DNA from: Nemertoderma westbladi
Taxonomy: Eukaryota; Animalia; Xenacoelomorpha
Assembly: GCA_032718475.1 (NCBI GenBank)
Contig: JAUCBJ010006859.1
Span: 10,377-74,376, forward strand
Length of the DNA: 64,000 nucleotides
Direction of reading: 5' to 3'
Shown here: positions 8,601 through 64,000 of the stretch, in pieces
Position numbering within the stretch: the first letter of the stretch is position 1
How the letters are laid out: every line of letters starts with the position of its first letter
Made by a program: the position numbers and the translations under genes
The notes under the pieces: model-generated
The model's database searches: none
The model's input: the letters and a program-made list of their open reading frames with translations, nothing else
What the model was told of the DNA's origin: nothing

Positions 8601-11600
8601 TATGTAAATGCCTCCCTTACTTACCTCCCGCTCCCTGATTCTCGTGTTGTTCTATGTAAATGCCTCCCTTACTTACCTCCCGCTCCCCGATTCTCGTGTT
8701 GTTCTATGTAAATGCCTCCCTTACTTACCTCCCGCTCCCTGATTCTCGTGTTGTTCTATGTAAATACCTCCCTTACTTACCTCCCGCTCCCTGATTCACG
8801 TGTTGTTCTATGTAAATGCCTCCCTTACTTACCTCCCGCTCCCTGATTCTCGTGTTGTTCTATGTAAATGCCTCCCTTACTTACCTCCCGCTCCCCGATT
8901 CTCGTGTTGTTCTATGTAAATGCCTCCCTTACTTACCTCCCGCTCCCTGATTCTCGTGTTGTTCTATGTAAATGCCTCCCTTACTTACCTCCCGCTCCCT
9001 GATTCTCGTGTTGTTCTATGTAAATGCCTCCCTTACTTACCTCCCGCTCCCCGATTCTCGTGTTGTTCTATGTAAATGCCTCCCTTACTTACCTCCCGCT
9101 CCCTGATTCTCGTGTTGTTCTATGTAAATACCTCCCTTACTTACCTCCCGCTCCCCGATTCTCGTGTTGTTCTATGTAAATGCCTCCCTTACTTACCTCC
9201 CGCTCCCTGATTCTCGTGTTGTTCTATGTAAATGCCTCCCTTACTTACCTCCCGCTCCCTGATTCTCGTGTTGTTCTATGTAAATGCCTCCCTTACTTAC
9301 CTCCCGCTCCCTGATTCTCGTGTTGTTCTATGTAAATGACTCCACTTACCTCCCGCTCCCTGATTCTCGTGTTGTTCTATGTAAATGCCTCCCTTACTTA
9401 CCTCCCGCTCCCTGATTCTCGTGTTGTTCTATGTAAATGACTCCACTTACCTCCCGCTCCCTGATTCTCGTGTTGTTCTATGTAAATGCCTCCCTTACTT
9501 ACCCCCCGCTCCCTGATTCTCGTGTTGTTCTATGTAAATGCCTCCCATACTTACCTCCCGCTCCCCGATTCTCGTGTTGTTCTATGTAAATGACTCCCTT
9601 ACTTACCTCCCGCTCCCTGATTCTCGTGTTGTTCTATGTAAATGACTCCACTTACCTCCCGCTCCCTGATTCTCGTGTTGTTCTATGTAAATGCCTCCCT
9701 TACTTACCTCCCGCTCCCCGATTCTCGTGTTGTTCTATGTAAATGACTCCCTTACTTACCTCCCGCTCCCTGATTCTCGTGTTGTTCTATGTAAATGACT
9801 CCACTTACCTCCCGCTCCCTGATTCTCGTGTTGTTCTATGTAAATGCCTCCCTTACTTACCTCCCGCTCCCTGATTCTCGTGTTGTTCTATGTAAATGAC
9901 TCCACTTACCTCCCGCTCCCTGATTCTCGTGTTGTTCTATGTAAATGCCTCCCTTACTTACCTCCCGCTCCCCGATTCTCGTGTTGTTCTATGTAAATGC
10001 CTCCCTTACTTACCTCCCGCTCCCTGATTCTCGTGTTGTTCTATGTAAATGCCTCCCTTACTTACCTCCTGCTCCCTGATTCTCGTGTTGTTCTATGTAA
10101 ATGCCTCCCTTACTTACCCCCCGCTCCCTGATTCTCGTGTTGTTCTATGTAAATGCCTCCCTTACTTACCTCCCGCTCCCTGATTCTCGTGTTGTTCTAT
10201 GTAAATGCCTACCTTACTTACCTCCCGCTCCCCGATTCTCGTGTTGTTCTATGTAAATGCCTCCCTTACTTACCTCCCGCTCCCTGATTCTCGTGTTGTT
10301 CTATGTAAATGCCTACCTTACTTACCTCCCGCTCCCCGATTCTCGTGTTGTTCTATGTAAATGCCTCCCTTACTTACCCCCCGCTCCCTGATTCTCGTGT
10401 TGTTCTATGTAAATGCCTCCCTTACTTACCTCCCGCTCCCTGATTCTCGTGTTGTTCTATGTAAATGCCTCCCTTACTTACCTCCCGCTCCCTGATTCTC
10501 GTGTTGTTCTATGTAAATGCCTACCTTACTTACCTCCCGCTCCCCGATTCTCGTGTTGTTCTATGTAAATGCCTCCCTTACTTACCTCCCGCTCCCTGAT
10601 TCTCGTGTTGTTCTATGTAAATGCCTCCCTTACTTACCTCCCGCTCCCTGATTCTCGTGTTGTTCTATGTAAATGCCTCCCTTACTTACCCCCCGCTCCC
10701 TGATTCTCGTGTTGTTCTATGTAAATGCCTCCCTTACTTACCTCCCGCTCCCTGATTCTCGTGTTGTTCTATGTAAATGCCTCCCTTACTTACCTCCCGC
10801 TCCCTGATTCTCGTGTTGTTCTATGTAAATGCCTCCCTTACTTACCTCCCGCTCCCCGATTCTCGTGTTGTTCTATGTAAATGCCTCCCTTACTTACCTC
10901 CCGCTCCCTGATTCTCGTGTTGTTCTATGTAAATGCCTCCCTTACTTACCTCCCGCTCCCCGATTCTCGTGTTGTTCTATGTAATTGCCTCCCTTACTTA
11001 CCTCCCGCTCCCCGATTCTCGTGTTGTTCTATGTAAATGCCTCCCTTACTTACCTCCCGCTCCCTGATTATCGTGTTGTTCTATGTAATTGCCTCCCTTA
11101 CTTACCTCCCGCTCCCTGATTCTCGTGTTGTTCTATGTAATTGCCTCCCTTACTTACCTCCCGCTCCCCGATTCTCGTGTTGTTCTATGTAAATGCCTCC
11201 CTTACTTACCTCCCGCTCCCCGATTCTCGTGTTGTTCTATGTAAATGCCTCCCTTACTTACCTCCCGCTCCCTGATTATCGTGTTGTTCTATGTAATTGC
11301 CTCCCTTACTTACCTCCCGCTCCCCGATTCTCGTGTTGTTCTATGTAAATGCCTCCCTTACTTACCTCCCGCTCCCTGATTATCGTGTTGTTCTATGTAA
11401 TTGCCTCCCTTACTTACCTCCCGCTCCCTGATTCTCGTGTTGTTCTATGTAATTGCCTCCCTTACTTACCTCCCGCTCCCCGATTCTCGTGTTGTTCTAT
11501 GTAATTGCCTCCCTTACTTACCTCCCGCTCCCCGATTCTCGTGTTGTTCTATGTAAATGCTTCCCTTACTTACCTCCCGCTCCCCGATTCTCGTGTTGTT

Positions 11601-43438: not shown

Positions 43439-43521
43439 GATCGAATGTAACATAGTTATTACGTATCGAACGTAACCGCAATTATGTTACATTGGATCCT
43501 ATAACTATGTTACATTCGATC
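43439..43521. repeat. Perfect 21-bp inverted repeat (probable MITE remnant)
   Basis: GATCGAATGTAACATAGTTAT (43439-43459) and its exact reverse complement (43501-43521). The related motif CGAATGTAAC recurs at about 44646, beyond the LINE. Confidence 0.75.
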
Positions 43522-43579
43522 TACAATTTACTAATATTACTATTTATAATATTACTAATATACTATTTACTATTTATAC

Positions 43580-44638
43580 ACGTTCACTCGCAAATGTGAT
43601 AAGGAAATACGGACTGTCCCTACATCTCAACGCAGATGATACTCACATATACATAACATTTAAAAAATCAAACCTGAATGATGCAGTGGATATCACTGAA
43701 AAGTGCCTTTCTGAAGTTCGAGCATGGATGGACTCACATCTTTTAAAGATGAACTCAGATAAGACTAAAGTGGTCATGCTGCAGTCGCAATTCGGTAAAC
43801 AAGTTGAATCCCCGCACGTGATAATCGGTTCCGAGACTATTGGTTGTAGCGCAACTGCGCGTAATATCGGTGTTGAAATCGATTCTCATCTGACATTCCG
43901 TAAGCACATTGGAATTACTGTCAGAGAAGCTTTCTATCACCTCAGGAATCTTGGAAAAATTAAGCGCTATTTATCCAAAGACAATCTTGAGATTTTGATT
44001 CATGCGCTTGTCACAAGTAAATTGGACAACTGCAACTCCCTTTATTACGGTCTTCCGACTGATTCCATTAAAAAGCTACAATATGTGCAGAACTGTGCGG
44101 CGCGTCTTTTAGTTGGTCTCAAGAAAGGTGACAGGCAACGAATGACCCCTGTACTAATGCGACTACATTGGCTTCCAGTGCAACGTCGGATAGACTATAA
44201 AATTGCGATGATTACCTACAAGTGTCTGAATGGAACAGCACCAGTATATCTGCGAGATCTACTGTCACCCTACACGCCCTCCCGGTCACTGAGGTCGTCC
44301 CACTACGAACTGCTGATGATCCCTAGATTCAACATGGTGCACTACGGCAAGCGCGCTTTCTCAGTTGCTGCCCCGACTATTTGGAACAAACTGCCAATCA
44401 ACGTTCGACAATCACCAACCATCGCGGTTTTTAAGTCGAGGCTAAAAACACACTATTTCCACCTGGAGTACGAGTAAATCTGCATAATCATATTCACACG
44501 ATGTTATCAATGTCCGTTTTTAATTAAACTGTTTTTATCTAATTTTTTAGCAATCCTACATTTTAACAGTGCCATGCGCCTTGCTCTTAATTTAGGAAAG
44601 GCGCTATATAAATATTTTAATTATTATTATTATTATTA
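43580..44638 (+). mobile_element. 5'-truncated L2-clade LINE in STT3A intron 1
   Basis: ORF 43596-44477 carries the RT C-terminal half (HLNADDTHIY, LKMNSDKT, HALVTSKLDNCNSL, LHWLPV, RAFSVAAPTIWNKLP, FKSRLKTH). The 3' UTR has a GCGCCTT...AAGGCGCTATATAAAT stem-loop and a (TTA)n tail. Confidence 0.92.
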
Positions 44639-44913
44639 CTAAGCCCGAATGTAACATGCCATTTAAAGGAGCAGGTTACAGATACGTGTTGGGGGAACCA
44701 AAACAATAAACGAAAGTTAACACATGTTACACGATTATGCAGGTTACTTTTATTTAAAGGCAGAAAGGAGCAGGTTACAGAGGCGTGTTGGCGTACATCT
44801 ATCAATACTTAAACAGTGATTAGCTTCTACTAAGTCTGAAACTTACTTTCAGTTTCTGTAGTCTAGTATAGACCTAACTCATATAACAGTCTAAAAATCA
44901 TTATATATTTTAG

Positions 44914-46266
44914 CCTCAACATTACAATCGACATCCGTAACGTATGTGTCTTCCTGGCCCCCCTCTTCTCCTCACTAACTAGCATCGTCACCTACCATCT
45001 CACCAAAGAGCTCTGGTCCACAGGGGCTGGCCTCGTCGCTGCTAGTCTCATTGCTATCGTCCCTGGTTACATATCCCGTTCGGTGGCTGGAAGTTACGAC
45101 AACGAAGGAATCGCCATCTTCTGCATGCTCCTCACCTACACATTGTGGATAAAGGCTGTTAAACGTGGCAGCGTTGCCTGGGCGACCGCCTGCGCAGTCG
45201 CATACTTCTACATGGTATCATCCTGGGGAGGCTACGTCTTCCTTATCAACCTCATACCAATGCATGTATTCGCTCTCATAGTAACCGGTCGTTTCAACGT
45301 TAAGGTCTACGTTAGCTACTGCACCGTCTATTGCCTCGGTACCGTAATGTCAATGCAGATCCCCTTCGTGGGGTTCCAGCCTATACAGAGCTCGGAGCAC
45401 ATGGCCGCCTTCGGGGTCTTTGGACTCTGTCAGATAGTCGGTTTCTACCAGTACGCCGCGAGCAAGTTGTCCAAAGAAGAGTTGAATCTCTTGTCGCGGT
45501 TCGTTATCTCGGCGACGGTGGTGGTCTCGTTGGTTGTCGCCATGGCTCTGCAACTCTCCGGTAAGATCGCGCCCTGGACCGGTCGCTTCTACAGTTTGCT
45601 GGATCCCAGTTACGCCAAGAACAACATCCCCATCATCGCGTCCGTCTCCGAGCATCAACCGACCGCCTGGAGTTCCTTCTACTTCGATCTGCAACTCCTC
45701 GTCTTTATGTTCCCCGTTGGCCTCTACCACTGCTTCGCTAACCTCACCACCGAGAACATCTTTATCATTCTGTACGGCGTCACTAGCATTTACTTCGCCG
45801 GCGTTATGGTTCGATTGATGTTGGTTCTAGCGCCGGTTATGTGCATCCTTGCGAGCATAGGTCTCAACAAAACGATGACGTCCTTTATGAAGAACTTGGA
45901 ATCGACGAATAAGGAAACCCCGCAGCCGAAGAAACGAGCCGACAACTCGTACTCCGTTAAGAACGAGGTCGCCATGGCTGTGGTCGCGATGATCACGCTG
46001 TTCCTGACCACCTACGTGTTCCACTGCACCTGGGTGACCAGCGAGGCCTACAGCAGTCCGTCCATCGTGCTGGCGGCTAGGGGCGGCAGCGATGGAAGTC
46101 GGATGATATTCGACGACTTCAGGGAGGCCTACTACTGGATGCGGCAGAACACCGAGGAAGACGCGAAGATAATGTCCTGGTGGGATTACGGATATCAGAT
46201 AACCGCGATGGCTAACCGAACCATACTAGTCGACAATAACACCTGGAACAACACTCACATATCGAG
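44914..46266 (+). CDS. STT3A: STT3A coding exon 2
   Basis: ttttAG|C CTC AAC... [16 protein letters not shown]...[11 protein letters not shown]...SVSEHQP...WWDYGYQ...[11 protein letters not shown], donor AG|GTTATT. Contains the catalytic WWDYG motif. Confidence 0.96.
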
Positions 46267-46457
46267 GTTATTATTACATTGTACACACCTTATATATTAA
46301 TGTTAAGAAATTTACTATTCGCAACAATAAACTCAGTTCAGTTACCATCGTTTTAAAAAAAAACCAATTGCGAGAAAAATTGCGGTACCCTGTGATATTA
46401 TTTGGATACCGGAACGTTTTATTGGTATACTTCATCGTGATTCCTCTTGTTTTACAG

Positions 46458-52590: not shown

Positions 52591-52867
52591 GGCTTAACGA
52601 GTCTAAAAGATTCTCCCATTCATTAATTTCATGAAATTCGTGAATTTGAATTGCGAATTAGTTTTGGGTCACCTCTCACCTCTTTTTTCCTCAATTGAGG
52701 AGACAGACAGACAGACAGACAGACAATTATTGTAAAACGATGCAAAATACTACATATACAACATCAAAAAGTAAATAATTTCACATAAACAATGATATAT
52801 TAATATTGCAATAATTTTGACATTCAAATTGTAAACATTAAACTAAATAATATCCTCACGTTCGTTC

Positions 52868-55310
52868 TGTACCAAGGCGAAGTCTAGGTACAAAGTGTAC
52901 TATACTGTACTATACAAAATGTACTGTACTCTAGTGTACGAAGTATAGGTACAAAGTGTACTATACTGTACTATACAAAATGTACTGTACTCTAGTGTAC
53001 GAAGGCTAGTTTTGCTATCAGAGCTTTATTGTCAGTCTCTCTCAGTGGCAGTAATAAAATATTTCTGCAGTATACTTGATAAACAACCGCGACCTCTATA
53101 CTAACAGCAGAACTGTTGAACAGACCAATACCCGTTAATATCCTTCTGTCAACCTAATGAGCTCTCGCCTAACCAATAAGACACAAAGAATGCTCTACTG
53201 TTAAGTAAAGGGGATCAGGAGCGTGATATTACTAAATTGTAAAGGTGGCTAAATACAAAACCGCTACTTACCGTTGGATGGCGCTAATCTGCCGTCCGCT
53301 AATATATTTTACTAATTTTACACAACTCCTGCAAAATCGCTTGTTCCTTTCTCTACCGATCGCTCGATAGAGAGCTAACTGTTCGAATCTATGAGCCACG
53401 CGGGAATAACCAAAACAATAAACCCGAGTCGGCTCCCTAAGCTTACTTAAGACGAGTGCGAGAGGCCTTGCACTCAGAGTATTCTTACGCCTAATTCTAT
53501 CACTATTAAAACACGCTATTGTCTACGTCTTTCTAATCGCGAATACTGGAGGTTCCCTAACGTAATGTGTGAATGCGAGAATATTTAAAATAATCAAAAT
53601 GATACAGTAATTGTTTTTACGTGGATAGTACCACTCTGGGTCTAAACTTGCCTGCGGCTGGCTTTAGGCCAGCAAATTACTAGCGTATCGTGCGTACCGA
53701 ATAGTGCGATCTAGCTGATTGCCCGCTAGTGCAAATAACCGCTCAGCGTGAATAGTTTACAGTACTCTAATTATTACCTTAGCTACTCTCCGCTATGCTG
53801 CGTACTAATTCTTAATTTTTACTAATCAATTACAGTCACAAATATTTAACAGCGTACTAATTACTAAGAGTTCCAGAATACGTAATTCTAATTTATTACG
53901 CAACAGGTTTCGCTAGTAATAGCCTAAATTGCCGTATTACTTTGACCTAATCAGTAACTAATTATTGTAACTAAGAAATAGAAATCAATCAAAAGAAAAG
54001 GGCGCCTACCTAAACATTCATAATCATAGGCACACTTCAATAACACACCAATCAGCGTCAGAAATCACAGTTCGCAATTATGCAGTTAACTACTGTATAG
54101 CCCACAATTATGCGATTCACTACTCGTACTCTACACTCAACGTTGTAATACGCGCAGGCCTCTCCCGGATACATCTAGGATTCCTAACTAACCCGATTCC
54201 TGCCCCCCTAATACTAAATAGAGATAAAACCTGGATCATCAGCCCCCTAGTTACTGTATCGGCGAATGGTCTGCGTGTTACAGTGCAAGATACCCGCCCG
54301 CAACGGTGACCCTAGCCAGCGTTGCCCGCTTTGAATCCTCCGCTCTCTCCTAGTCGCTCAACCCCCCGATGTGCCCACCGCCCACTGGCACCTTAGCCCT
54401 CCATTATGCTAATAGCTACCGTAGCGGCGCATGCAAATCACAAAGTCTGACAGTCTCAGAAATCCCTTAGGATTATTGCGCAGAAAGGAATCACATAGAA
54501 CCATTAATCAAAAGTAGAAATCATAGTTCAGTTGTAATTAGCAGTAATCGAAGGAATTAATTGAGAAACACAATCGAGAGTAATCGCACTAGCAAATCAT
54601 TCCAAGAAATTAATCAAAATTAGCAAATTGCAGAAAATACGCTAAAATATCCGTCAAAATTGAATAGAGACAGCTCAACAAGTACAAAGGTGATAGCAGA
54701 TCATGTGAGGTGTCATGTGAGGCTCTACCGGCACACCGCCAATTTATAGGTGATCCGGATGGGGTGATGCAATAGGGTGACTCAATCGCTCTCCTATTGG
54801 CTCTCCAGTCCGTGCTAGCATTAGACCAACCTGGAAGCAGTTAGTCCAATAAGGAGGCCGGATTGTAGCCCTATCGCTTGCCCAAACCTCAAATTATTAC
54901 CATATATGGTAATGGTTCACGTCCCTGGCTGCTGAATGGCCAGGACAGCGTCCCTATATGCTAGCCCTATCGATGCTAATATCAGCAAGCACAAAATCCA
55001 GGGTCCGAATAAACTCGCTACCCTGGAACTATCTACATATATCCTAATACAAAATTACGTAGGTAGGGCTACATACTATACAAAATGGATGGATTCAAAT
55101 ATATGGGTGTTTCGATTTCCCTATCTAAATACCACTGCGTTATTATGCCTTATCTAAAATATCATGCTGCACAATGGACTAATATTACGTACAGTATAAC
55201 GGACTAATATTGCATACTGCATAACGGACTAATATTGCATACAGTATAACGACTAATAATGTGGATACAGCGCCATATACCGTAACACCGCTCCAAGGGA
55301 AATCATACAA
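52868..55310 (-). mobile_element. Probable 3' LTR / 3' non-coding region of the BEL/Pao element (boundaries unresolved)
   Basis: Non-coding region downstream of the element ORFs. Minus-strand CCAAT (about 54796-54800), TATAAA (about 54742-54747) and AATAAA (53025-53030), a candidate TGT terminus at 52868, and a 61-bp tandem duplication at 52878-53004. The 5' LTR is outside the window, so this cannot be confirmed. Confidence 0.4.
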
Positions 55311-55783
55311 TGTTTCCCTCCAATTGTAGAAGAGTATAAGGTGATGTATACAAAACAAAATAAATTTCTTCCAACCAATCTAAACACTTGATACTATAAA
55401 TCCTACTATTTACAAATATTGCTATAGATATTGCATAATGAATTACATACAAATTAAATTTACAAAAATATTATCTCTCTCATTGTTTAACGATTATTAC
55501 ATACAAATTAAATTTACAAAATATTGTTTCTCGTTCATTCTTACTACATAATGATTACTACATACAAAATCAAATATAAAAATTGGCTAGGGCAAGTGAA
55601 AGGAGTAAGCCAAACCCGCAGGTTTGTCTCCCCAATCACTTCCTTCGCCTCTCTCATAATATAAATTCCAAAATAACTCAACTAGTGTATATGAGTCTAG
55701 TCGAAGAATTCCAAATGCTACAATATACATCAGAGCGACGATGATGTATATATCTAGAGTCTGTCGCCCTGTGCTATAATGTA

Positions 55784-58700
55784 TTATCGACCCGCTCCTG
55801 GGTTCTTTGGGCTCGCTCCTCTCTTTCGCCCTCTTCCCAGATACACTAATCTACCTCCAGTCGACTCCATTGACGGCGTCCGTGAGGCGTCACTCCCCGG
55901 AACCGGCGACGACGTTCCCTGAGCCCCGACAGACTCCCGGCTTGTGCTTCTTCCTCGGCCTCGTCCCAATTGTCGCGCTCCCGTGGTCGCTTCCGCCAAC
56001 TCTTCCTTATGCAGTTGCACTCGCGCCTTCTCCGACGCCCCCTGCGCCTTGCGCTGCAACCTCTGTGCTTCTATAATAGAGTGGTAGTGGTCGTCCTTGA
56101 CTTGACGCTTGTCTTGGACCCCTCCTCCTGGTTCTTTCCGCGAGCTTTGAGCTCCAGCGGTCGTCGCTGTGGTCGCTGCGATCCTTTGCTCCTGTATCCT
56201 CTCAGCGGTCAATGAACCCACTGGCACATGAGTCAACAAGAATTCGTTGCGGTATTGTATAGCCGCCATCCTCCAATCACCTCGCGCGCGTACCACTTTT
56301 CTAGTCTCCGTAAATACACCCTTCGTGATGCGATCGCAAATAGCAACGAAGTTCCATGTGTACTTATTGTCCATGTTCAATTGTCTGAAGTATTCTCGGA
56401 CTACGATAACTCCAGTGTTCTGTGGAAGGTCTTGAGCAGTTAGGATGAGCTCCTGATATTGTGGTAGCGATTGTAGATATGGCTCGTACGCAACATGCGA
56501 TGGGTCTACCGCCCAAAACCCATATCCCGCTTTAAATGGTAACCAACGCATCTGCGCTTGAATATGGTAATCAGCCACACCCTCCCACTTATCTAACATC
56601 TCCCGAAGTAGGTTAGCGCTATGGTTTTGAAAGGAATCATCTCGCAGCTGACATCTCGCGCTACGATGTCCCTTTACCCAACAATATCCACATTGAGAAA
56701 TGAAGACGGTGCACGTGTGAAACGAATGGTCGGTCTCATTACACCAACGACAGACCTTATGCGCCGCCTCTACTACCGCGTCGCACGACTTTAGATTGTG
56801 CCTTGTGCTGCCGCACAATTTGCACCTACGCGCTTGTGGAAACCAGGCCCTCTCGTATATGAGGTCTCCAATCGGTTTCGCACTTCCTTCCTTCCCAATG
56901 TCTAATACGATGTCGTCCTCTCCGGTCAACGGTTGTCGATCCGGAACAAAGTAAACATCCTCGCCCTTGTCCTCTATCTCCAATATTTCCTCCCGCGTTC
57001 GTTTCGGATATGTCTTCTCCACCGGAAGATCTACTCCGAACACCTCTACTAACGTCTCCGGCCAGCCCTCCTTAACAGGTCTATCAGCCTCCGAGTGGAA
57101 GGGAGTACCAAACCCGCGGGTTTGATTCCCGAACCACTTCTCCAAAGCTTCTGGCGTCGGATACTCCATCGACGGTCGGTCTCCCAAATCTCCGATGTTC
57201 TGTTGATATACTCCTTCGAATATCGCTAATCCTCTCCTAACCATCGACGTATTCTCTAACGATTGGTTGAAGAACGGGGTTAAGAAACGCTTCATCACGT
57301 CGGATTGGATTCCCCCTTTCGAGCGAACGTATTGATCTCCTCCGAATACCAATGGATGACGCTTCAAAACTCGCGCAACGATATCCGCTAATAAACAAGT
57401 CACCGTGTTCGACTCAAGCACCAAATAATATTGTAGCAACGCACGGGGTGGCGCGCAAATGTTCCAATACACTAATGCTTGCCGCTTGAAGTGGGATTTG
57501 AACTCCGCTCCCGGTGGCGTGTTGTATTCACCATACGCCTCCTCGTACTTCTTCTGCGTCTTTAACTTAAAGTCCCAATTATACAACAAGTGTGCTATAA
57601 AGCCCATACCAGTCTTGGCAGAGTTGGGATACTCCCTATAAATTCCAATATCCTGTGCCCATAGCAACAATAGCTTGGTGTCGACAAACGGTCTCGGCAA
57701 TCTATCTTCCAGATCAGTCATGGCGTTGAAGTCACTCTCCAAATCGCTCTGGACTCCCGATCCCACCTTGACGTAATCTTGGTTGAGAATAGCCTCTCTA
57801 ACTTTCTTGGGTAACATCCTGGCGTCGATACGCTCCGCTCCGTGCATACCTCCTCGCCTGCATACCTCCAAAATCTGTTCCCTAGGATCCTTCCCCTTCC
57901 GATATTGTGTCGTTATGATGGGCTCCGGTCTCTCTCGATCCGCCCTCACACGCATAAACACATGAGTCACACCATCGGCCGCACGAATTTGAATACACTT
58001 GCTGGTCAAACATTCCTGATGGGACCCTCCTTCATTGTCGTAGAACATCACCCTCCAATCCTGCAGTGATTCCTCCGTTTTCCTCCACTGACGCTGAATC
58101 TCGTCTGATGGGGTCCACATGCGCTCGATAGCCTTGTGGTCATCATATCGGGTATAAGAACCCTTCCTCCTCAGCCACGTCTGGTCTACCTCCTCGTCAT
58201 CTGGGAATGTAGCCACCGCGACCCATACCTTGATGTACTTATCCAACCATCCGAATAGCTTACTCTCCTTCCCCGGAGCTCCAATCTTATCCAACGTGTC
58301 GTAATCTGTGATCTGCATTGGGACATCACGCAAGAACTTCGCGCATAAAACTTCCCGTAGACAGTCAACGTTCCAATGGTCCGCCATTCTTACCATCGGC
58401 AAGAATCGTATCGCTTCTCGCGACTCCGGATGATCTACTAATATCGCAGGTTCGGTGCCGTCGGAATAATACACCGGTCCGGGTTGAGATACGACCTGTG
58501 GAACAAATCCGGTCACTCTCCTCGTCTCCTCTTGATGTCTATCCGCGGTCTTATTATACTCCGCTATCCTGTTCTCAAATAACTCTTTCGCCTTCGCCGC
58601 TCGCTCCTCCTGCCGCAACGCGTCTATGTCGTCCTGATGCTCAGGCGTGAGGCTTCTCACTCGGTGAGGTGAAGTAAACGCAGTCCAGGGACTCGAGAGC

Positions 58701-59491
58701 TCCAAACCCGCGGGTTTGGTACCCGAGTCCCGCGCCGCTTCGCGCCGCGCCTCTAGATCCTTGTAGGCTCGGTACAGCGAAATGGCCGCTGCCGTCTCTA
58801 TCAAACTGGGTGTCGAACAGGGTTTAATCTCCGTATACGGATCCAATGTCGTAACGGTCGGCGTAATGGGTCTCGGAGGTCGCTTTCCGCTGAAGTCGAT
58901 ACTGATCATCGGGTTGCTCATCGGGTAACCTCCCTCGTTGTATCTAAGGAATTGGTGAGCTGGACATCGCGTTAATATCGGTTCCGGATGTTGCTCGTCT
59001 AATCGGTCGGGAATCGCCACGTCTTGTTTATTCATGCATTCACCACACTTGTAGAAGAGCTTGTATACGCTGAAGACTTTCGGCGTCTCCTGATCCTCGC
59101 CTCGAGTCCTCCGGTACAGATGCATTCCGTCAAACTGATCTCGGACTGCAGGTAGAGGCTCCTCGTGTCGTAAATACATATTCATATGGTATAGTCGTGC
59201 GATTTCCTCGTCCGGATCTGCGCTAATGTCACATACGTCCAAAGCGAAGTCGTAGGGATACCGCGTGCGATACTCTCTCCGCAAAACTTCCATCCGGTCC
59301 CCCAACGCTCTCATTCTTTCCCTCCGTAATTCTTTATCATAACTCGGCTTGTATTTCCCATTTAGCTCCATCACGGACCGCCCATGGTAGTAAACGTTAG
59401 AGTCTTTACATCCTGGTCGCGCGAATGGTAGCTCCGCCTCCTCTCTGGCAGTAAATCCTCTGCGCGGTTGCGCTCTAATATCCCTCTCCAT
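55784..59491 (-). CDS. 1235-aa accessory ORF of the BEL/Pao element: DEDDy-like (WRN/EXD2/RNase D-type) 3'-5' exonuclease plus three CCHC zinc knuckles
   Basis: Intact ATG-initiated ORF. Motifs VMFYDNEG (ExoI), CIQI, LPKKVREAILNQDYVKVGSGVQSD (ExoII), FVDT, GMGFIAHLL and W...LLQYYLVLE (ExoIII-like). Knuckles CKLCGSTRHNLKSC, CRWCNETDHSFHTC and CGYCWVKGHRSARC. Basic RG-rich tail. Confidence 0.8.
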   Translation of the reverse strand: MERDIRAQPRRGFTAREEAELPFARPGCKDSNVYYHGRSVMELNGKYKPSYDKELRRERMRALGDRMEVLRREYRTRYPYDFALDVCDISADPDEEIARLYHMNMYLRHEEPLPAVRDQFDGMHLYRRTRGEDQETPKVFSVYKLFYKCGECMNKQDVAIPDRLDEQHPEPILTRCPAHQFLRYNEGGYPMSNPMISIDFSGKRPPRPITPTVTTLDPYTEIKPCSTPSLIETAAAISLYRAYKDLEARREAARDSGTKPAGLELSSPWTAFTSPHRVRSLTPEHQDDIDALRQEERAAKAKELFENRIAEYNKTADRHQEETRRVTGFVPQVVSQPGPVYYSDGTEPAILVDHPESREAIRFLPMVRMADHWNVDCLREVLCAKFLRDVPMQITDYDTLDKIGAPGKESKLFGWLDKYIKVWVAVATFPDDEEVDQTWLRRKGSYTRYDDHKAIERMWTPSDEIQRQWRKTEESLQDWRVMFYDNEGGSHQECLTSKCIQIRAADGVTHVFMRVRADRERPEPIITTQYRKGKDPREQILEVCRRGGMHGAERIDARMLPKKVREAILNQDYVKVGSGVQSDLESDFNAMTDLEDRLPRPFVDTKLLLLWAQDIGIYREYPNSAKTGMGFIAHLLYNWDFKLKTQKKYEEAYGEYNTPPGAEFKSHFKRQALVYWNICAPPRALLQYYLVLESNTVTCLLADIVARVLKRHPLVFGGDQYVRSKGGIQSDVMKRFLTPFFNQSLENTSMVRRGLAIFEGVYQQNIGDLGDRPSMEYPTPEALEKWFGNQTRGFGTPFHSEADRPVKEGWPETLVEVFGVDLPVEKTYPKRTREEILEIEDKGEDVYFVPDRQPLTGEDDIVLDIGKEGSAKPIGDLIYERAWFPQARRCKLCGSTRHNLKSCDAVVEAAHKVCRWCNETDHSFHTCTVFISQCGYCWVKGHRSARCQLRDDSFQNHSANLLREMLDKWEGVADYHIQAQMRWLPFKAGYGFWAVDPSHVAYEPYLQSLPQYQELILTAQDLPQNTGVIVVREYFRQLNMDNKYTWNFVAICDRITKGVFTETRKVVRARGDWRMAAIQYRNEFLLTHVPVGSLTAERIQEQRIAATTATTAGAQSSRKEPGGGVQDKRQVKDDHYHSIIEAQRLQRKAQGASEKARVQLHKEELAEATTGARQLGRGRGRSTSRESVGAQGTSSPVPGSDASRTPSMESTGGRLVYLGRGRKRGASPKNPGAGR

Positions 59492-60253
59492 TATGCCTCG
59501 CGTATATACATATATATATATCCCAATAAGTGTCGTTACGTAACCAATTACACTGTGGGTAAATCAGTTAGATGTCGCCGAAGGACAGAACTCCCGAACC
59601 CCCCCCCCCACCTTCCAGCAGTTCAGGTTCGACTCTCTAGATTCCGTCTCTTCCTAACTAACTATCCTCTAACCTATTCCCATGCATAGCGCAAAAACTT
59701 TGGAGATAAACTGGCCGTGACCAACTCACTTTTTGATGCCCAAACTACTCCCATTACTCGTACTAAACTACAGTAGTTAGAAAGGACCATAGCCACAATA
59801 CTCGACTATACCAAACCCACAGGTTTGATAATCGAACATCACACATCCTGCAAACTACTGAGTGGGGTCCATGTACGCCTCTGGTGCTACTAACCTTTAG
59901 CACCTTAGTTGCACTGTTGGCACCAATCTGTGGAAGTTGCTAAACTCAATTTACACTCCTACGTAATATAGCCGTCACCATGGTTTCTAAATGCTATTTT
60001 CCTGGCTTCACGACTTTTCAAATTACTGTTTATCTATAGACGAATTCTAAAACGCGTCTATACACAGCATCTGGAATTGTCTTGGGTTCACTTCTAATTT
60101 TTTAAAATTTTAAATTTTTCAAAATTTTTGAAAATAAAATTTTGTTTTGATACCCACTAGACAAAACTCAACGCAAATCACCACAACCCCGCTCCTATGC
60201 ATTTCCTTGTATTTGCATACGAGGAATGCATACGAAGTGAGTTGCGTCCAACA

Positions 60254-63200
60254 CTAATTCTGTTTTGAGGCAGGAGACAAATTATAATCTCCCGTCTCGA
60301 TACGTGTCTCCTCTAATAACACAATATCTTGGACCGGTCGGTCCAAGGTGTGTAAACCATTAGTTTTACACTTTTTTGGGTGCGGACACTTGCACCTAAT
60401 TTTCACAGTGACTGTGCGCACTATGTTTTGCACGTCTGGGTGTGTGTGCAAGATCACTCCTGTCTCCCAATACTTTCTCTTGACAATCGGCTCGGTTATC
60501 AGTACGTAATCTCCCCTTTGGAGACTCCGAACCGTTTTGTACCACTTTGTTCTGGTGGATATGGTGGGAAGATAGTATTCCCGCCAATATTCCCAGAATG
60601 TGTACGCGACTAATTGAGTCATTTTCCAGCTCTTACGACTATATAGGTCGGCACTAACGGGTTCTGATGCCGGCACAAGAAATGCTGGACTCTGCATTAG
60701 CAAATGATTCGGCGTTAATGCAACACCGTCTGGCAACATAGCTATCGGCCTCGAGTTTAGGGTATGCTCGATTTCAATGAAAGCTGTGACCAGTTCGTCG
60801 TCGGTAAGTTGTTTGTTTACAGGCAACGTCTTAGCAATGGCCTGCTTCACAGAGCGAACTAAACACTCCCAACTTCCTCCTCTCCAAGGACTTTCTGGAG
60901 TATTAAATCTCCACTCTACTCTTTGCGGCAAAAGTGCTGCAGAAATTTCCTTATTCTGTGCCGCTTTATGAGCCGCGTTCAACTCGCTATTCCCTCCGAC
61001 AAAGTTTGTACCCTTATCGGAGTAGAACGCCTTTACTAGTCCTCTCCTGGCCATAAATCTCTTTAAGGCCAGGAGCAGAGATTTGGTCGACATGTCTGCC
61101 ACACGCTCAATGTGTATGGCTCTACTAGCCATGCATGTCAGTAGCAGACCCCATCGCTTGTGGGTCAGCCGTCCACTCTTTGCTTCAATCGGACCAAAAC
61201 AATCCACCCCTGTGTTCGTAAAGGGTGGGTCATATGCCTGCACTCTCGCTTCCGGGAGTTCAGCCATCTCCTGTTCCAATACTCTGGCGTTCACCCTCTT
61301 GCAAACCAGACAGGCGTCATACATAGTGCCGACTGCCCTGCTTGGCTGCAATAGAATGAATCGCTGTCTCGCTGCCGACAGACAGTGTAACTTTCCCGCG
61401 TGATGCAACCTCTTGTGTATATCCCATAGAATCGCTCTTTGCAATTCTATCGGGTAACTAGGGATTATCACTGGGAACCGAAACTGTGAGTTTATGTCGA
61501 CAGTCTGGATTCTCGATCTATGACAAATCAAACCCTTATGGATTAATGGACTCCATTTTCTAAGGGGTTTATAGAGAACTGGTCGTTGAGCCGATAATAG
61601 ATGGAATTCTTTCGGGAAGGCACACATTTGATAATGTTTCAAATGCTTTAATTCCGCTTGATCAATCTCATCCTCTGTCAGAGGTTGTTTCAATTTCCGA
61701 ATTCGCTCACTATTGGTGCTCAATGGTTCTCTCAAATGTTTCGAATGTTTTATACAAAGGTACAAAATGTATCGGCTTAACCACGCAGTGCTTTTACAAA
61801 TTGTCAGCCAAGAGGCAGACGAATTTAGTAATTTGTCATAAATACTACATGGCTCTAATGCCAGCGACGGTTGTCCGCTAATTAATGGAAGTTTCGAATC
61901 CAAACCCGCAGGTTTGGAAACCAAAGACTCCATTGTGTCGGTCATTTTCTGTCCGTCACTTACCAATTGTGACTCCGGTTTAGTCTGTAAGGGTGGTTTT
62001 ACGTCGTAACTTACCCTTCCGGATCTAGTAGTCACGTAAGTCTGTTGGTCTGACAGGTCTCCGGGCCGCTCCAATGACTCTTCAGGCCGCTCCAATGACT
62101 CTTCAGGCCGCTCCAATGACTCTTCAGGCCGCTCCAATGACTCTTCAGGCCGCTCCAATGACTCTTCAGGCCGCTCCAATGACTCTTCAGGCCGCTCCAA
62201 TGACTCTTCAGGCCGCTCCAATGACTTGAGTTTGGCTTTAGAGTTCGACTTAGAGACTTTCTCCACCTTGACTTCTGCATCTTCAGGCATCGGATTGGTC
62301 ACAATCTTTAGTCGCTCTGGCCAATGTTCCTGTGTCCTTGTTAGAAAATCAGGTCCATGCAACCAAAACTCCTGCGACTCTTCCTGACAGAATTCCGCCG
62401 GCATTGCACCTCTCGAAGTTATGTCGGCCGGGTTCAACACTCCCGGACAATGTCTCCATTGTTCCTTCGTCTAAAAATCAACGATCTGAGCGCGTCTATT
62501 GGCCACAAATGTCTTTAGTGCAATATTGTCGGCCGCAATGTATACTAACACCAAGGATGCGTCCGTCCAATAGAATAAGGTCAATGTCGTGTCTAACTCC
62601 TCAGTTATTTGCTTACTTACCTCGACTGAAACTACAGCCGCCTGTAACTCTGCACGAGGGACAGTCATGTATTTGACCGGCATTGTCTTTGATCTAGAAG
62701 TCACAAAGGCCGTCTCAAACTTGTCCTGACTTACCTCTCGGCGAAGGTAGGCTACCATACCAAAGCCGGTGTCACTTGCGTCACTGAACAAATGCAGTTC
62801 GAGATCAGCTGGAAATACCAGCTGATTCGGAAAGTAGGAACGGGGTACGTCTATGTTTTTCAATAGATGTAACTCGGCTTCCCACTCCCTCCACTGCTTT
62901 GCATGTATAGGAGATATTGGTTCGTCCCACTCTAAGTCGGACAACCAAATTTTCCTCATGCACGCTCGTGCCTGTAATATAACCGGACTGATAAAATTCA
63001 TCGGGTCAAATAGTCTACTTAATGTCGATAAGCAAATCCTCTTTGTCAAAACTTTGTCTGGGCTACTGGGCTCAAATCTAACTCTTACCTGGAATTTATC
63101 TGAGTTCGGGTTCCAAGCGAGTCCCAGTACTCGCGCCATGGGGATTGGTTCTACCCCCAATTCTATGTCTCCGCTCCCGCGATCTTTCACCGGGAATGAC

Positions 63201-64000
63201 TCTAATAGGGCCTCCGAGTTTGTAGTGAACTTGGTCAGAGGAAATCCCCCTGTAGCCAAGCACTCTTGCAGGCCGTGAGCCACTTCTATGGCTTGTTCCG
63301 CTGTATCCTTGGACACCAATCCGTCGTCCATGTAGAAGTTTCTCAAGATGGACTCGATTACTTCTACTGGATACTTACCAATCTGGGCTGTTGCCGTTTT
63401 CTTTAAAACGAACAGCGTGCCATTCGGACTATCGCGGGCGCCAAATATCCTAACGTACATCTGGTATGTAACCACTGGGCCGGATAAGTCTTCATTCTCG
63501 TACCAGAGAAAGCGAAGGCTATCCTGGTCTGCCTTACAGGCTCTTACCTGGTGGAACATCGCCTCGATGTCACAAGTAAATGCGAATCGCCGCTGTCTAA
63601 AACGCAACAGTATTCCAATCAAATAGTTGTTCAGGTTGGGACCATCCATCAACTCTGAATTCAGGGACATACCTCTATAGACTGCTGCGCAGTCGTTGAC
63701 TACTCGGACTTTGTCTGGCTTGTCAGGGTGAGTCACATAGTGGTGTGGAAGGTAATAAGTCTGGTCTGTCACTAAGTCAGGGTCCTCTACCTTCCCAGAA
63801 AATCCCTTGGTGAAATAGTTGTTGATCTGGGCGCAATACTTCTCCCTAATATCCGGATTCTTCAACAACCGAGCCCTTACTCCGTTTAATCTTTTCAAGG
63901 CTAAGTTGTAGTTGTTCTCCAACTTAGGTGGTTGTCGACGCCACAACATTCCAACTTCAAAATGTCCAGTCGGTAGCAGACGTATGGTATCTTCCATCAT
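60254..64000 (-). mobile_element. BEL/Pao LTR retrotransposon pol (RT, RNase H, integrase), one in-frame stop, 5' part beyond the window
   Basis: YYLPHH, KVRVVNDCAA, SLNSEL.DGPNL, DIEAMFHQV, FYMDD, RLFDPM, LHLFSDAS, VPRAELQAA, WTDA, QWRHCPG.NPAD..SRG, integrase HHCC, GVDCFGP, SDKGTNFVG, GGSWE.LVRSVK. TAG at 62471-62473; the same frame continues after it. Confidence 0.96.
62064..62226 (-). repeat. In-frame 21-bp coding minisatellite (SLERPEE, about 7.7 copies) in the RNase H-integrase linker
   Basis: Plus-strand unit GGCCGCTCCAATGACTCTTCA, identical copies, reading frame preserved. Confidence 0.97.

Follow-up and report, generated by a model that had tools for sequence, protein, structure and literature searches.

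A BEL/Pao retrotransposon of Nemertoderma westbladi with a predicted DEDDy-type exonuclease and zinc-knuckle gene in the env position

Third open reading frames (ORFs) of the DEDDy type are described in bdelloid rotifers for the long terminal repeat (LTR) elements Juno and Vesta and for Athena/Terminons, where their activity was untested and no significant departure from neutrality was found (Rodriguez et al. 2017, PMC5408684). A review reports them likewise for rotifers (PMC5718144). For Belpaoviridae, the profile of the International Committee on Taxonomy of Viruses gives only env-like third genes (PMC8742986), and a term search of the available text of a BEL/Pao survey returned 0 occurrences of "exonuclease", "accessory", and "additional ORF" (PMC3118150). 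The window analyzed here is the whole stretch of 64,000 nucleotides at positions 10,377 to 74,376 of contig JAUCBJ010006859.1 (forward strand, assembly GCA_032718475.1) from Nemertoderma westbladi. It contains a BEL/Pao element with a third gene, ORF3, which is very probably real cargo of the element with a DEDDy fold. The literature, with Repbase, GyDB, subscription journals, and supplements outside the scope of the search, gave no report of a BEL/Pao exonuclease ORF or of a retroelement ORF that joins an exonuclease to three knuckles; an unpublished or database-only annotation of such an ORF is possible. A first-pass annotation of the window had mentioned DEDDy precedents from rotifers and nematodes. 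The rotifer precedent is documented, whereas the word nematode is absent from the available main text of the same paper (PMC5408684).

Layout of ORF3 beside described systems

ORF3 occupies positions 55784-59491 of the minus strand and reads from ATG to stop through 1235 codons without a break and without an intron. It has the same orientation as pol and starts 762 nt past the integrase stop, in agreement with the intact, co-oriented frame about 760 bp downstream reported in the first-pass annotation. No transmembrane stretch was detected in ORF3 (best 19-residue Kyte-Doolittle mean, 1.34), and no signal peptide was recognized by eye at the charged N-terminus, for which no dedicated predictor was run. 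Judged by these sequence features, ORF3 is not env-like, in agreement with the first-pass annotation.

The N-terminal region of approximately 457 aa (58121-59491, minus strand) has no family match in Pfam, NCBIfam, or PHROGs below E 0.1 and is far shorter in the alignment of nine homologues. The earlier description of about 480 unassigned residues therefore stands as to the missing assignment, but the length is nearer 450, and the fold match begins near residue 458. The predicted DEDDy-type 3'-5' exonuclease domain follows at residues ~458-733 (57293-58120, minus strand), as recognized by profile and structure matches, with D485, E487, D583, Y689, and E693 as the predicted active-site residues. 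The ExoI motif, D485-N-E487, is located at 58039-58031, and the ExoII motif, KVGSGVQSD with D583 as its Asp, at 57769-57743. ExoIII is Y689-x3-E693 at 57427-57413; a strict Y-x3-D test failed here due to the Glu at position 693. Three exact CX2CX4HX4C zinc knuckles, starting at residues 890, 914, and 934, span residues 890-947 (56651-56824, minus strand) and were identified by motif, alignment, and family profile. Both the DEDDy-like motifs and the knuckles lie where the first-pass annotation had placed them. Past the knuckles is a conserved tail of the FE-x2-AD-x-G ... WGFF type (56444-56650, minus strand), defined by the family alignment and profile.

The third ORFs of rotifer Juno, Vesta, and Terminons resemble ORF3 as non-env genes after pol with a DEDDy fold and no transmembrane or coiled-coil anchor. 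One acidic position is altered in the rotifer proteins (DEED), whereas the change in the present protein is at ExoIII. The protein described here is also distinguished by its 1235 aa, three CCHC knuckles, and conserved tail; a Cys-His-Cys motif is what is described for some of the rotifer ORFs. Strong purifying selection here contrasts with no significant departure from neutrality in the rotifer genes. The host element is BEL/Pao in the present case, whereas Juno and Vesta are gypsy-like.

The closest architecture is that of Trypanosoma brucei RNase D (TbRND), in which the Exo domain precedes four CCHC fingers at the C-terminus that make contact with the RNA substrate (PMC7797062). The same order of a 3'-5' Exo domain and tandem C-terminal CCHC fingers is found in ORF3, and both domains match (PDB 7c42 and 7c45). 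TbRND is a cellular guide-RNA trimmer with four fingers and a 28-aa linker, whereas ORF3 belongs to a mobile element and has three fingers, ~155 aa of linker, and an extended N-terminal part; the likeness in layout is not proof of common descent. Within the EXD2/WRN/Nibbler (Mut-7) group, the KVG-x-G-x3-D ExoII motif is common to EXD2 and ORF3. The ORF3 protein differs from this group by domain insertions, the ExoIII Glu, and fusion to the knuckles, and no one-to-one orthology is claimed. Egalitarian is catalytically inactive. It shares the EXO fold with ORF3 but is host-encoded and has no knuckles; according to PDB titles, it binds stem-loop signals that include the one of the I-factor retrotransposon. 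Belpaoviridae with an env-like gene share with the present element a Pao-type pol and a third ORF between the integrase and the polypurine tract (PMC8742986). In contrast to those elements, the third gene here is not env-like, the probable LTR is 2.4 kb rather than 0.2-1.2 kb, and 11.1 kb of element is seen rather than 4.2-10 kb (PMC8742986).

Homologues, profile matches, and predicted fold

Direct library searches with ORF3 and its parts gave nothing significant in Pfam, NCBIfam, PHROGs, PDB sequences, or phage sequences by tblastn. A rotavirus VP4 match among the PDB sequences (E 0.05) was taken as chance. Word-indexed homologue searches gave no homologue. Residues 311-1063 were then used as the query in an unindexed search of 1.84 billion representatives, and nine proteins of 514-727 aa were obtained (E 1e-11 to 3e-4). 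All nine are from unannotated assemblies and contain the knuckle cluster and the conserved tail, most with a full exonuclease-like N-terminal domain. ORF3 scored 152 bits against the profile of the nine homologues, for which the best of 200 shuffles scored 3.4, and two domains appear in the match at residues 559-718 and 884-1016. The exonuclease domain of ORF3 scored 74 bits and 98.5% against the homologue profile.

A profile of eight homologues, from which the protein of the window was excluded, matched the exonuclease domain of EXD2 at E 6.4e-8, and EXD2 was the best profile hit over the profile searches (E 6e-8 to 1e-8). In the ten aligned sequences, the ExoI Asp is present in nine, the ExoI Glu in eight, and the ExoII Asp in nine; the ExoIII position is Asp in six and Glu in three. 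The ExoIII Glu thus also occurs in two homologues, P0003 and P0004, and no variant is listed at its codon among the copies of the window's family. The alignment of ExoII and ExoIII is firm (98.5%). The Cys and His columns of the knuckles are invariant or nearly so across the ten sequences. The family profile matches the knuckles of Lin28, retroviral nucleocapsid, and TbRND, while the Pfam hits obtained for the knuckles from ORF3 itself were below the cut-off.

In homologue P0002, the whole knuckle-plus-tail module appears twice and the exonuclease motif set is degenerate; this finding suggests a self-contained module. Four loci (L001-L004) were obtained in a metagenome scan. L001 is a family member that includes the conserved tail, is cut at its 5' end, and has no pol in view. 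The other three match one or two knuckles only. No relatives were found among the viral contigs.

The structure of residues 450-1050 was predicted with AlphaFold from 11 sequences; a single-sequence model had a predicted local distance difference test score (pLDDT) of 33 and was unusable. The blocks of the ExoI segment have pLDDT values of 77-81. When the model was compared with 48,161 chains, the EXO domain of Nibbler ranked first (Z 11.7; root-mean-square deviation, 3.8; 184 residues aligned). Further matches were diDNase, RNase D (Z 10.7), WRN (10.4), Exd1 (10.3), RRP6, Egalitarian, and TbRND. All of the 20 best VIA rows (Z 9.3-11.7) belong to 3'-5' exonucleases, to polymerases with an exonuclease, or to relatives of these; two of the titles are uninformative. 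These structural matches share 7-19% identity with ORF3. EXD2 was ranked first by Foldseek (E 2e-3). The first-pass annotation had named a DnaQ-like fold as the feature to look for, and a DnaQ-like alpha/beta fold of the DEDDy type is predicted for ORF3 by both the Nibbler match of the model and the EXD2 match of the homologue profile.

Copies of the element, selection on ORF3, and repeated hairpins

The copy data consist of contigs from public sequencing runs (X1, X3, X4, and X6) aligned to the window, with depth summed per bin. The summed contig depth, which does not equal copy number, is >22,000 in every bin of 52981-64000 in X1 and X3 and falls to 302 and 57 in the bin below. The whole stretch, including ORF3, is thus a high-copy repeat. 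The high depth across ORF3 agrees with its presence in other copies of the family, for which the first-pass annotation had asked, and the depth edge agrees with the predicted LTR end. In all six bins of the probable LTR (52981-55266), the depth is >46,000 in X1 and X3.

Depth steps near 55650 and 59840 bracket ORF3. Loose contig ends appear at 55656, where some contigs continue into other sequence, and this continuation opens with identical letters in three runs; a family variant fits better here than many insertion sites. Among the contig pieces listed, none reaches from pol into ORF3. Because hairpins 2 and 5 (described below) lie near the depth steps, loss of ORF3 through recombination between them was considered; it was rejected, as no such joint is present among the 15 of 43 joints listed. 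In both X4 and X6, contigs end loosely at 55594 and again at 55656. These ends bracket hairpin 5, which therefore appears to persist in a related but otherwise different sequence. A joint of 59016-59349 in three of four runs indicates that some copies have lost a net 327 nt, in frame, from the N-terminal part of ORF3, equivalent to 109 codons (residues ~48-159) and including a CxxC pair.

Selection was evaluated from the best-supported 40 of 185 variant rows in 56300-58150 and from 40 of 594 rows for the whole stretch. In the former set, 34 of the 40 variants are synonymous. Among those that are polymorphic between copies, 33 of 36 are synonymous compared with 34% expected for random transitions (P 6e-13), and the rough ratio of nonsynonymous to synonymous polymorphism (pN/pS) is 0.05. 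Comparison of these rates across copies had been proposed in the first-pass annotation, and the excess means that ORF3 is maintained as a protein by purifying selection. Of the four variants nearly private to the present copy, only one is synonymous, as drift following insertion would predict. No variant in a motif codon and no indel appears among the best 40 rows for 56300-58150. Across the whole of ORF3, 15 of the 20 listed variants are synonymous.

A hairpin with the core CAAACC-YGYG-GGTTTGG occurs at five sites, compared with 0.06 matches expected from 100 shuffles. The hairpin shared by pol and ORF3 that was noticed in the first-pass annotation is therefore real. The copies, all on the minus strand, are located inside pol (61885-61935; z -4.0), in the spacer between pol and ORF3 (59795-59845; z -4.5), twice inside ORF3 (58686-58736, z -4.2, and 57092-57142, z -3.3), and in the 3' untranslated region (UTR; 55594-55644; z -3.7). 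They are numbered 1 to 5 in this order. The hairpins are ~45 nt long and spaced 1.1-2.1 kb apart (positions 55611, 57109, 58703, 59812, and 61901), and the core was not found in the window outside the element. Each has an invariant 6-bp CAAACC/GGTTTG top stem, a YGYG loop, and a covarying lower stem. Two-sided changes occur in 7 of the 17 consensus pairs, and 86% of the cells pair compared with 33-60% for slid partners, a control that leans in favor of the consensus because the latter was derived from the same five sequences.

The two copies within ORF3 are read in different frames, and the constraint on the hairpins therefore acts on nucleic acid. The transcript strand folds better by 2-7 kcal/mol in four of the five hairpins and worse in one, and for this reason an RNA role is favored over a DNA palindrome. 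By raw energy, three of the five are among the 20 most stable 50-mers of the element; they are not uniquely the most stable. No Rfam match was found in 52600-64000, and the core is absent from L001, which is cut at its 5' end. The hairpins probably serve as a cis signal on the element RNA that is read by the Gag nucleocapsid or by the knuckles of ORF3, and they are a candidate signal for packaging, export, or localization.

The host element was assigned to BEL/Pao from its pol, in which the reverse transcriptase and RNase H precede the integrase in the Pao-type order and the protease lies outside the window. The reverse transcriptase and RNase H part (62471-64000, minus strand) is truncated by the window edge and was identified by Peptidase_A17 (Pfam, E 8e-40) with weak RVT_1 and RT_RNaseH_2 matches. 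It is continued at 60254-62470 (minus strand) by a spacer and the integrase (Integrase_H2C2, E 5e-5; DUF5641, E 2e-17). The two pieces share one frame that is split by an in-frame stop at 62471-62473, and pol of the present copy is defective. The spacer between RNase H and integrase contains a 21-nt tandem repeat of ~8 units at 62016-62246 (minus strand), an in-frame expansion.

Downstream of the ORF3 stop, a UTR of ~460 nt leads to a probable polypurine tract at 55310-55322 (minus strand), assigned from its sequence and its place ahead of TGTA. This tract, GGAGGGAAA, sits three bases ahead of TGTA at 55309 and agrees with the purine tract of ~10 nt that precedes the 3' LTR in BEL/Pao elements. 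The probable 3' LTR of 2442 nt (52868-55309, minus strand) was delimited by its TGTA...TACA ends and the contig depth edge; it is the single LTR in view, with the 5' partner outside the window. A TATA-like box is present at 54749 and AATAAA at 53030. On this sequence evidence, ORF3 lies between the integrase and the probable 3' LTR; the first-pass annotation had asked for a position between two LTRs. The 11.1 kb in view lacks gag, protease, the primer-binding site, and the 5' LTR, as the window ends inside pol. The probable LTR is twice the stated upper range of the family, and a tandem of 2 x 61 nt close to its end is apparently peculiar to the present copy.

Elsewhere in the window, a satellite array with a 52-nt unit covers ~36 kb at 2501-39000, with copies ~98% alike. 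An STT3 oligosaccharyltransferase frame of 477 uninterrupted codons is located at 44867-46300 (plus strand; Pfam, E 8e-107). It adjoins a reverse transcriptase fragment at 43476-44477 and is possibly a retrocopy or an intron-poor gene. No identical entry for four proteins of the window was found in an exact-match protein collection.

Proposed function of ORF3 and alternative explanations

ORF3 is tentatively proposed, with a likelihood somewhat below even, to be a knuckle-guided 3'-to-5' RNA-trimming enzyme that acts in trans on host silencing small RNAs. The protein would be expressed from a subgenomic RNA, since 13 ATGs lie within the 762-nt spacer after pol. As in TbRND, single-stranded RNA would be held by the knuckles upstream of the active site, and the Glu may complete the set of four acidic residues. 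The enzyme would then trim or destroy host silencing small RNAs or the precursors of these. We lean moderately toward a catalytically active protein, and if it is active, an anti-silencing target would be favored to about the same extent. Action in trans is the best fit, given that the gene stands apart from gag-pol, is under selection, and is perhaps absent from many copies; the lower depth on ORF3 than on pol agrees with such action. The use of an exonuclease against host defense has a viral precedent in the arenavirus enzyme that suppresses innate immune signaling (PMC7968707).

Several observations weigh against this proposal. Activity, expression, and substrate are all predictions. The fourth acidic residue is Glu instead of Asp. 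The ExoI segment did not score above shuffles on a profile of ExoI only and was in register only at E 0.64. Because this segment alone is not significant, D485 and E487 are assigned as the putative ExoI pair from the global alignment and the model. The pLDDT of that model averages 55 and is 70-84 in much of the nuclease core. The Foldseek matches all had E values above 0.001, and the leading structural rows lie within 1 Z of each other, which makes the rank of Nibbler uninformative on substrate. The homologues were analyzed as protein sequences and are at most candidate BEL/Pao cargo. The depth of ORF3 is 0.42 (X1) and 0.50 (X3) of the pol depth, and many copies may be without ORF3 or have a diverged version. 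The selection counts are from rows that were picked by support.

The nuclease fold could instead be weak or inactive, with ORF3 serving as an RNA-binding adaptor like Egalitarian or EXD1 that recognizes the hairpins to route, package, or shield the element RNA. This is unlikely, although it carries appreciable weight. The ExoIII Glu and the diverged ExoI are as such an adaptor might have them, the five hairpins, in which the 6-bp top stem is invariant and the lower stem covaries, offer a ligand, and the fold matches include Egalitarian-RNA complexes, one of them with the signal of the I-factor. Maelstrom and EXD1 are named in the rotifer paper as inactive DEDD derivatives that still bind RNA (PMC5408684). 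However, a carboxylate is present at all four positions and most homologues are canonical DEDDy proteins. The hairpin also occurs in pol, where the Gag nucleocapsid could be the reader, and is missing from the 5'-cut L001. Rather less likely is an active nuclease that processes the replication intermediates of its own element within the particle (the 3' end of genomic RNA, the primer, or cDNA ends) and so has a proofreading-like or end-trimming function. Structured RNA 3' ends and single-stranded DNA are substrates of DEDDy enzymes, and such a role was proposed for the rotifer ORF3s (PMC5408684); the exonucleases of EXD2, WRN, and PolA are among the matches, and the element exceeds the 4.2-10 kb stated for the family. 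Other BEL/Pao elements nevertheless replicate with gag and pol alone (PMC8742986), the lower depth of ORF3 suggests that many copies spread without it in cis, and ORF3 is a separate ORF outside the Gag-Pol polyprotein.

It is improbable that ORF3 belongs to another mobile element or to a host gene nested in this BEL/Pao copy. The depth steps that bracket the gene, the loose ends at 55656, the want of a listed contig piece from pol to ORF3, and homologues seen as proteins only could all be read in this way. Nesting is opposed by one hairpin recurring in pol, the spacer, ORF3 (twice, in two frames), and the 3' UTR, and by a depth that, in X1 and X3, exceeds 22,000 in all bins from pol through to the LTR. 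ORF3 is also intronless and co-oriented, no terminal repeat pair flanking it is found among the repeats listed, and the loose end at 55656 starts identically in three runs. That an unrelated protein matches the motifs by chance is very improbable. The domain has no direct hit in Pfam, NCBIfam, PHROGs, or PDB sequences, which would point that way, but the transitive profile link to EXD2 and the concordant fold match largely refute this reading. The trimming enzyme acting in trans is retained as the proposal. An extension of it, in which the knuckle-guided exonuclease destroys host silencing RNAs while the hairpins mark the element RNA as self or recruit the enzyme, would make ORF3 part of a self-sparing RNase system and of a widespread, undescribed family of counter-defense genes; this is speculative and quite unlikely.

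To our knowledge, few animal retrotransposons encode their own counter-defense proteins. With the present case, enzymatic cargo other than env is extended to BEL/Pao elements. The case also bears on the role of exonuclease third genes, for which neither activity nor selection was demonstrated in the rotifer report (PMC5408684). The family described here offers high copy number, strong purifying selection, and a separable enzyme-plus-knuckle unit, together with distant homologues whose active sites are canonical and an RNA hairpin as a candidate ligand.

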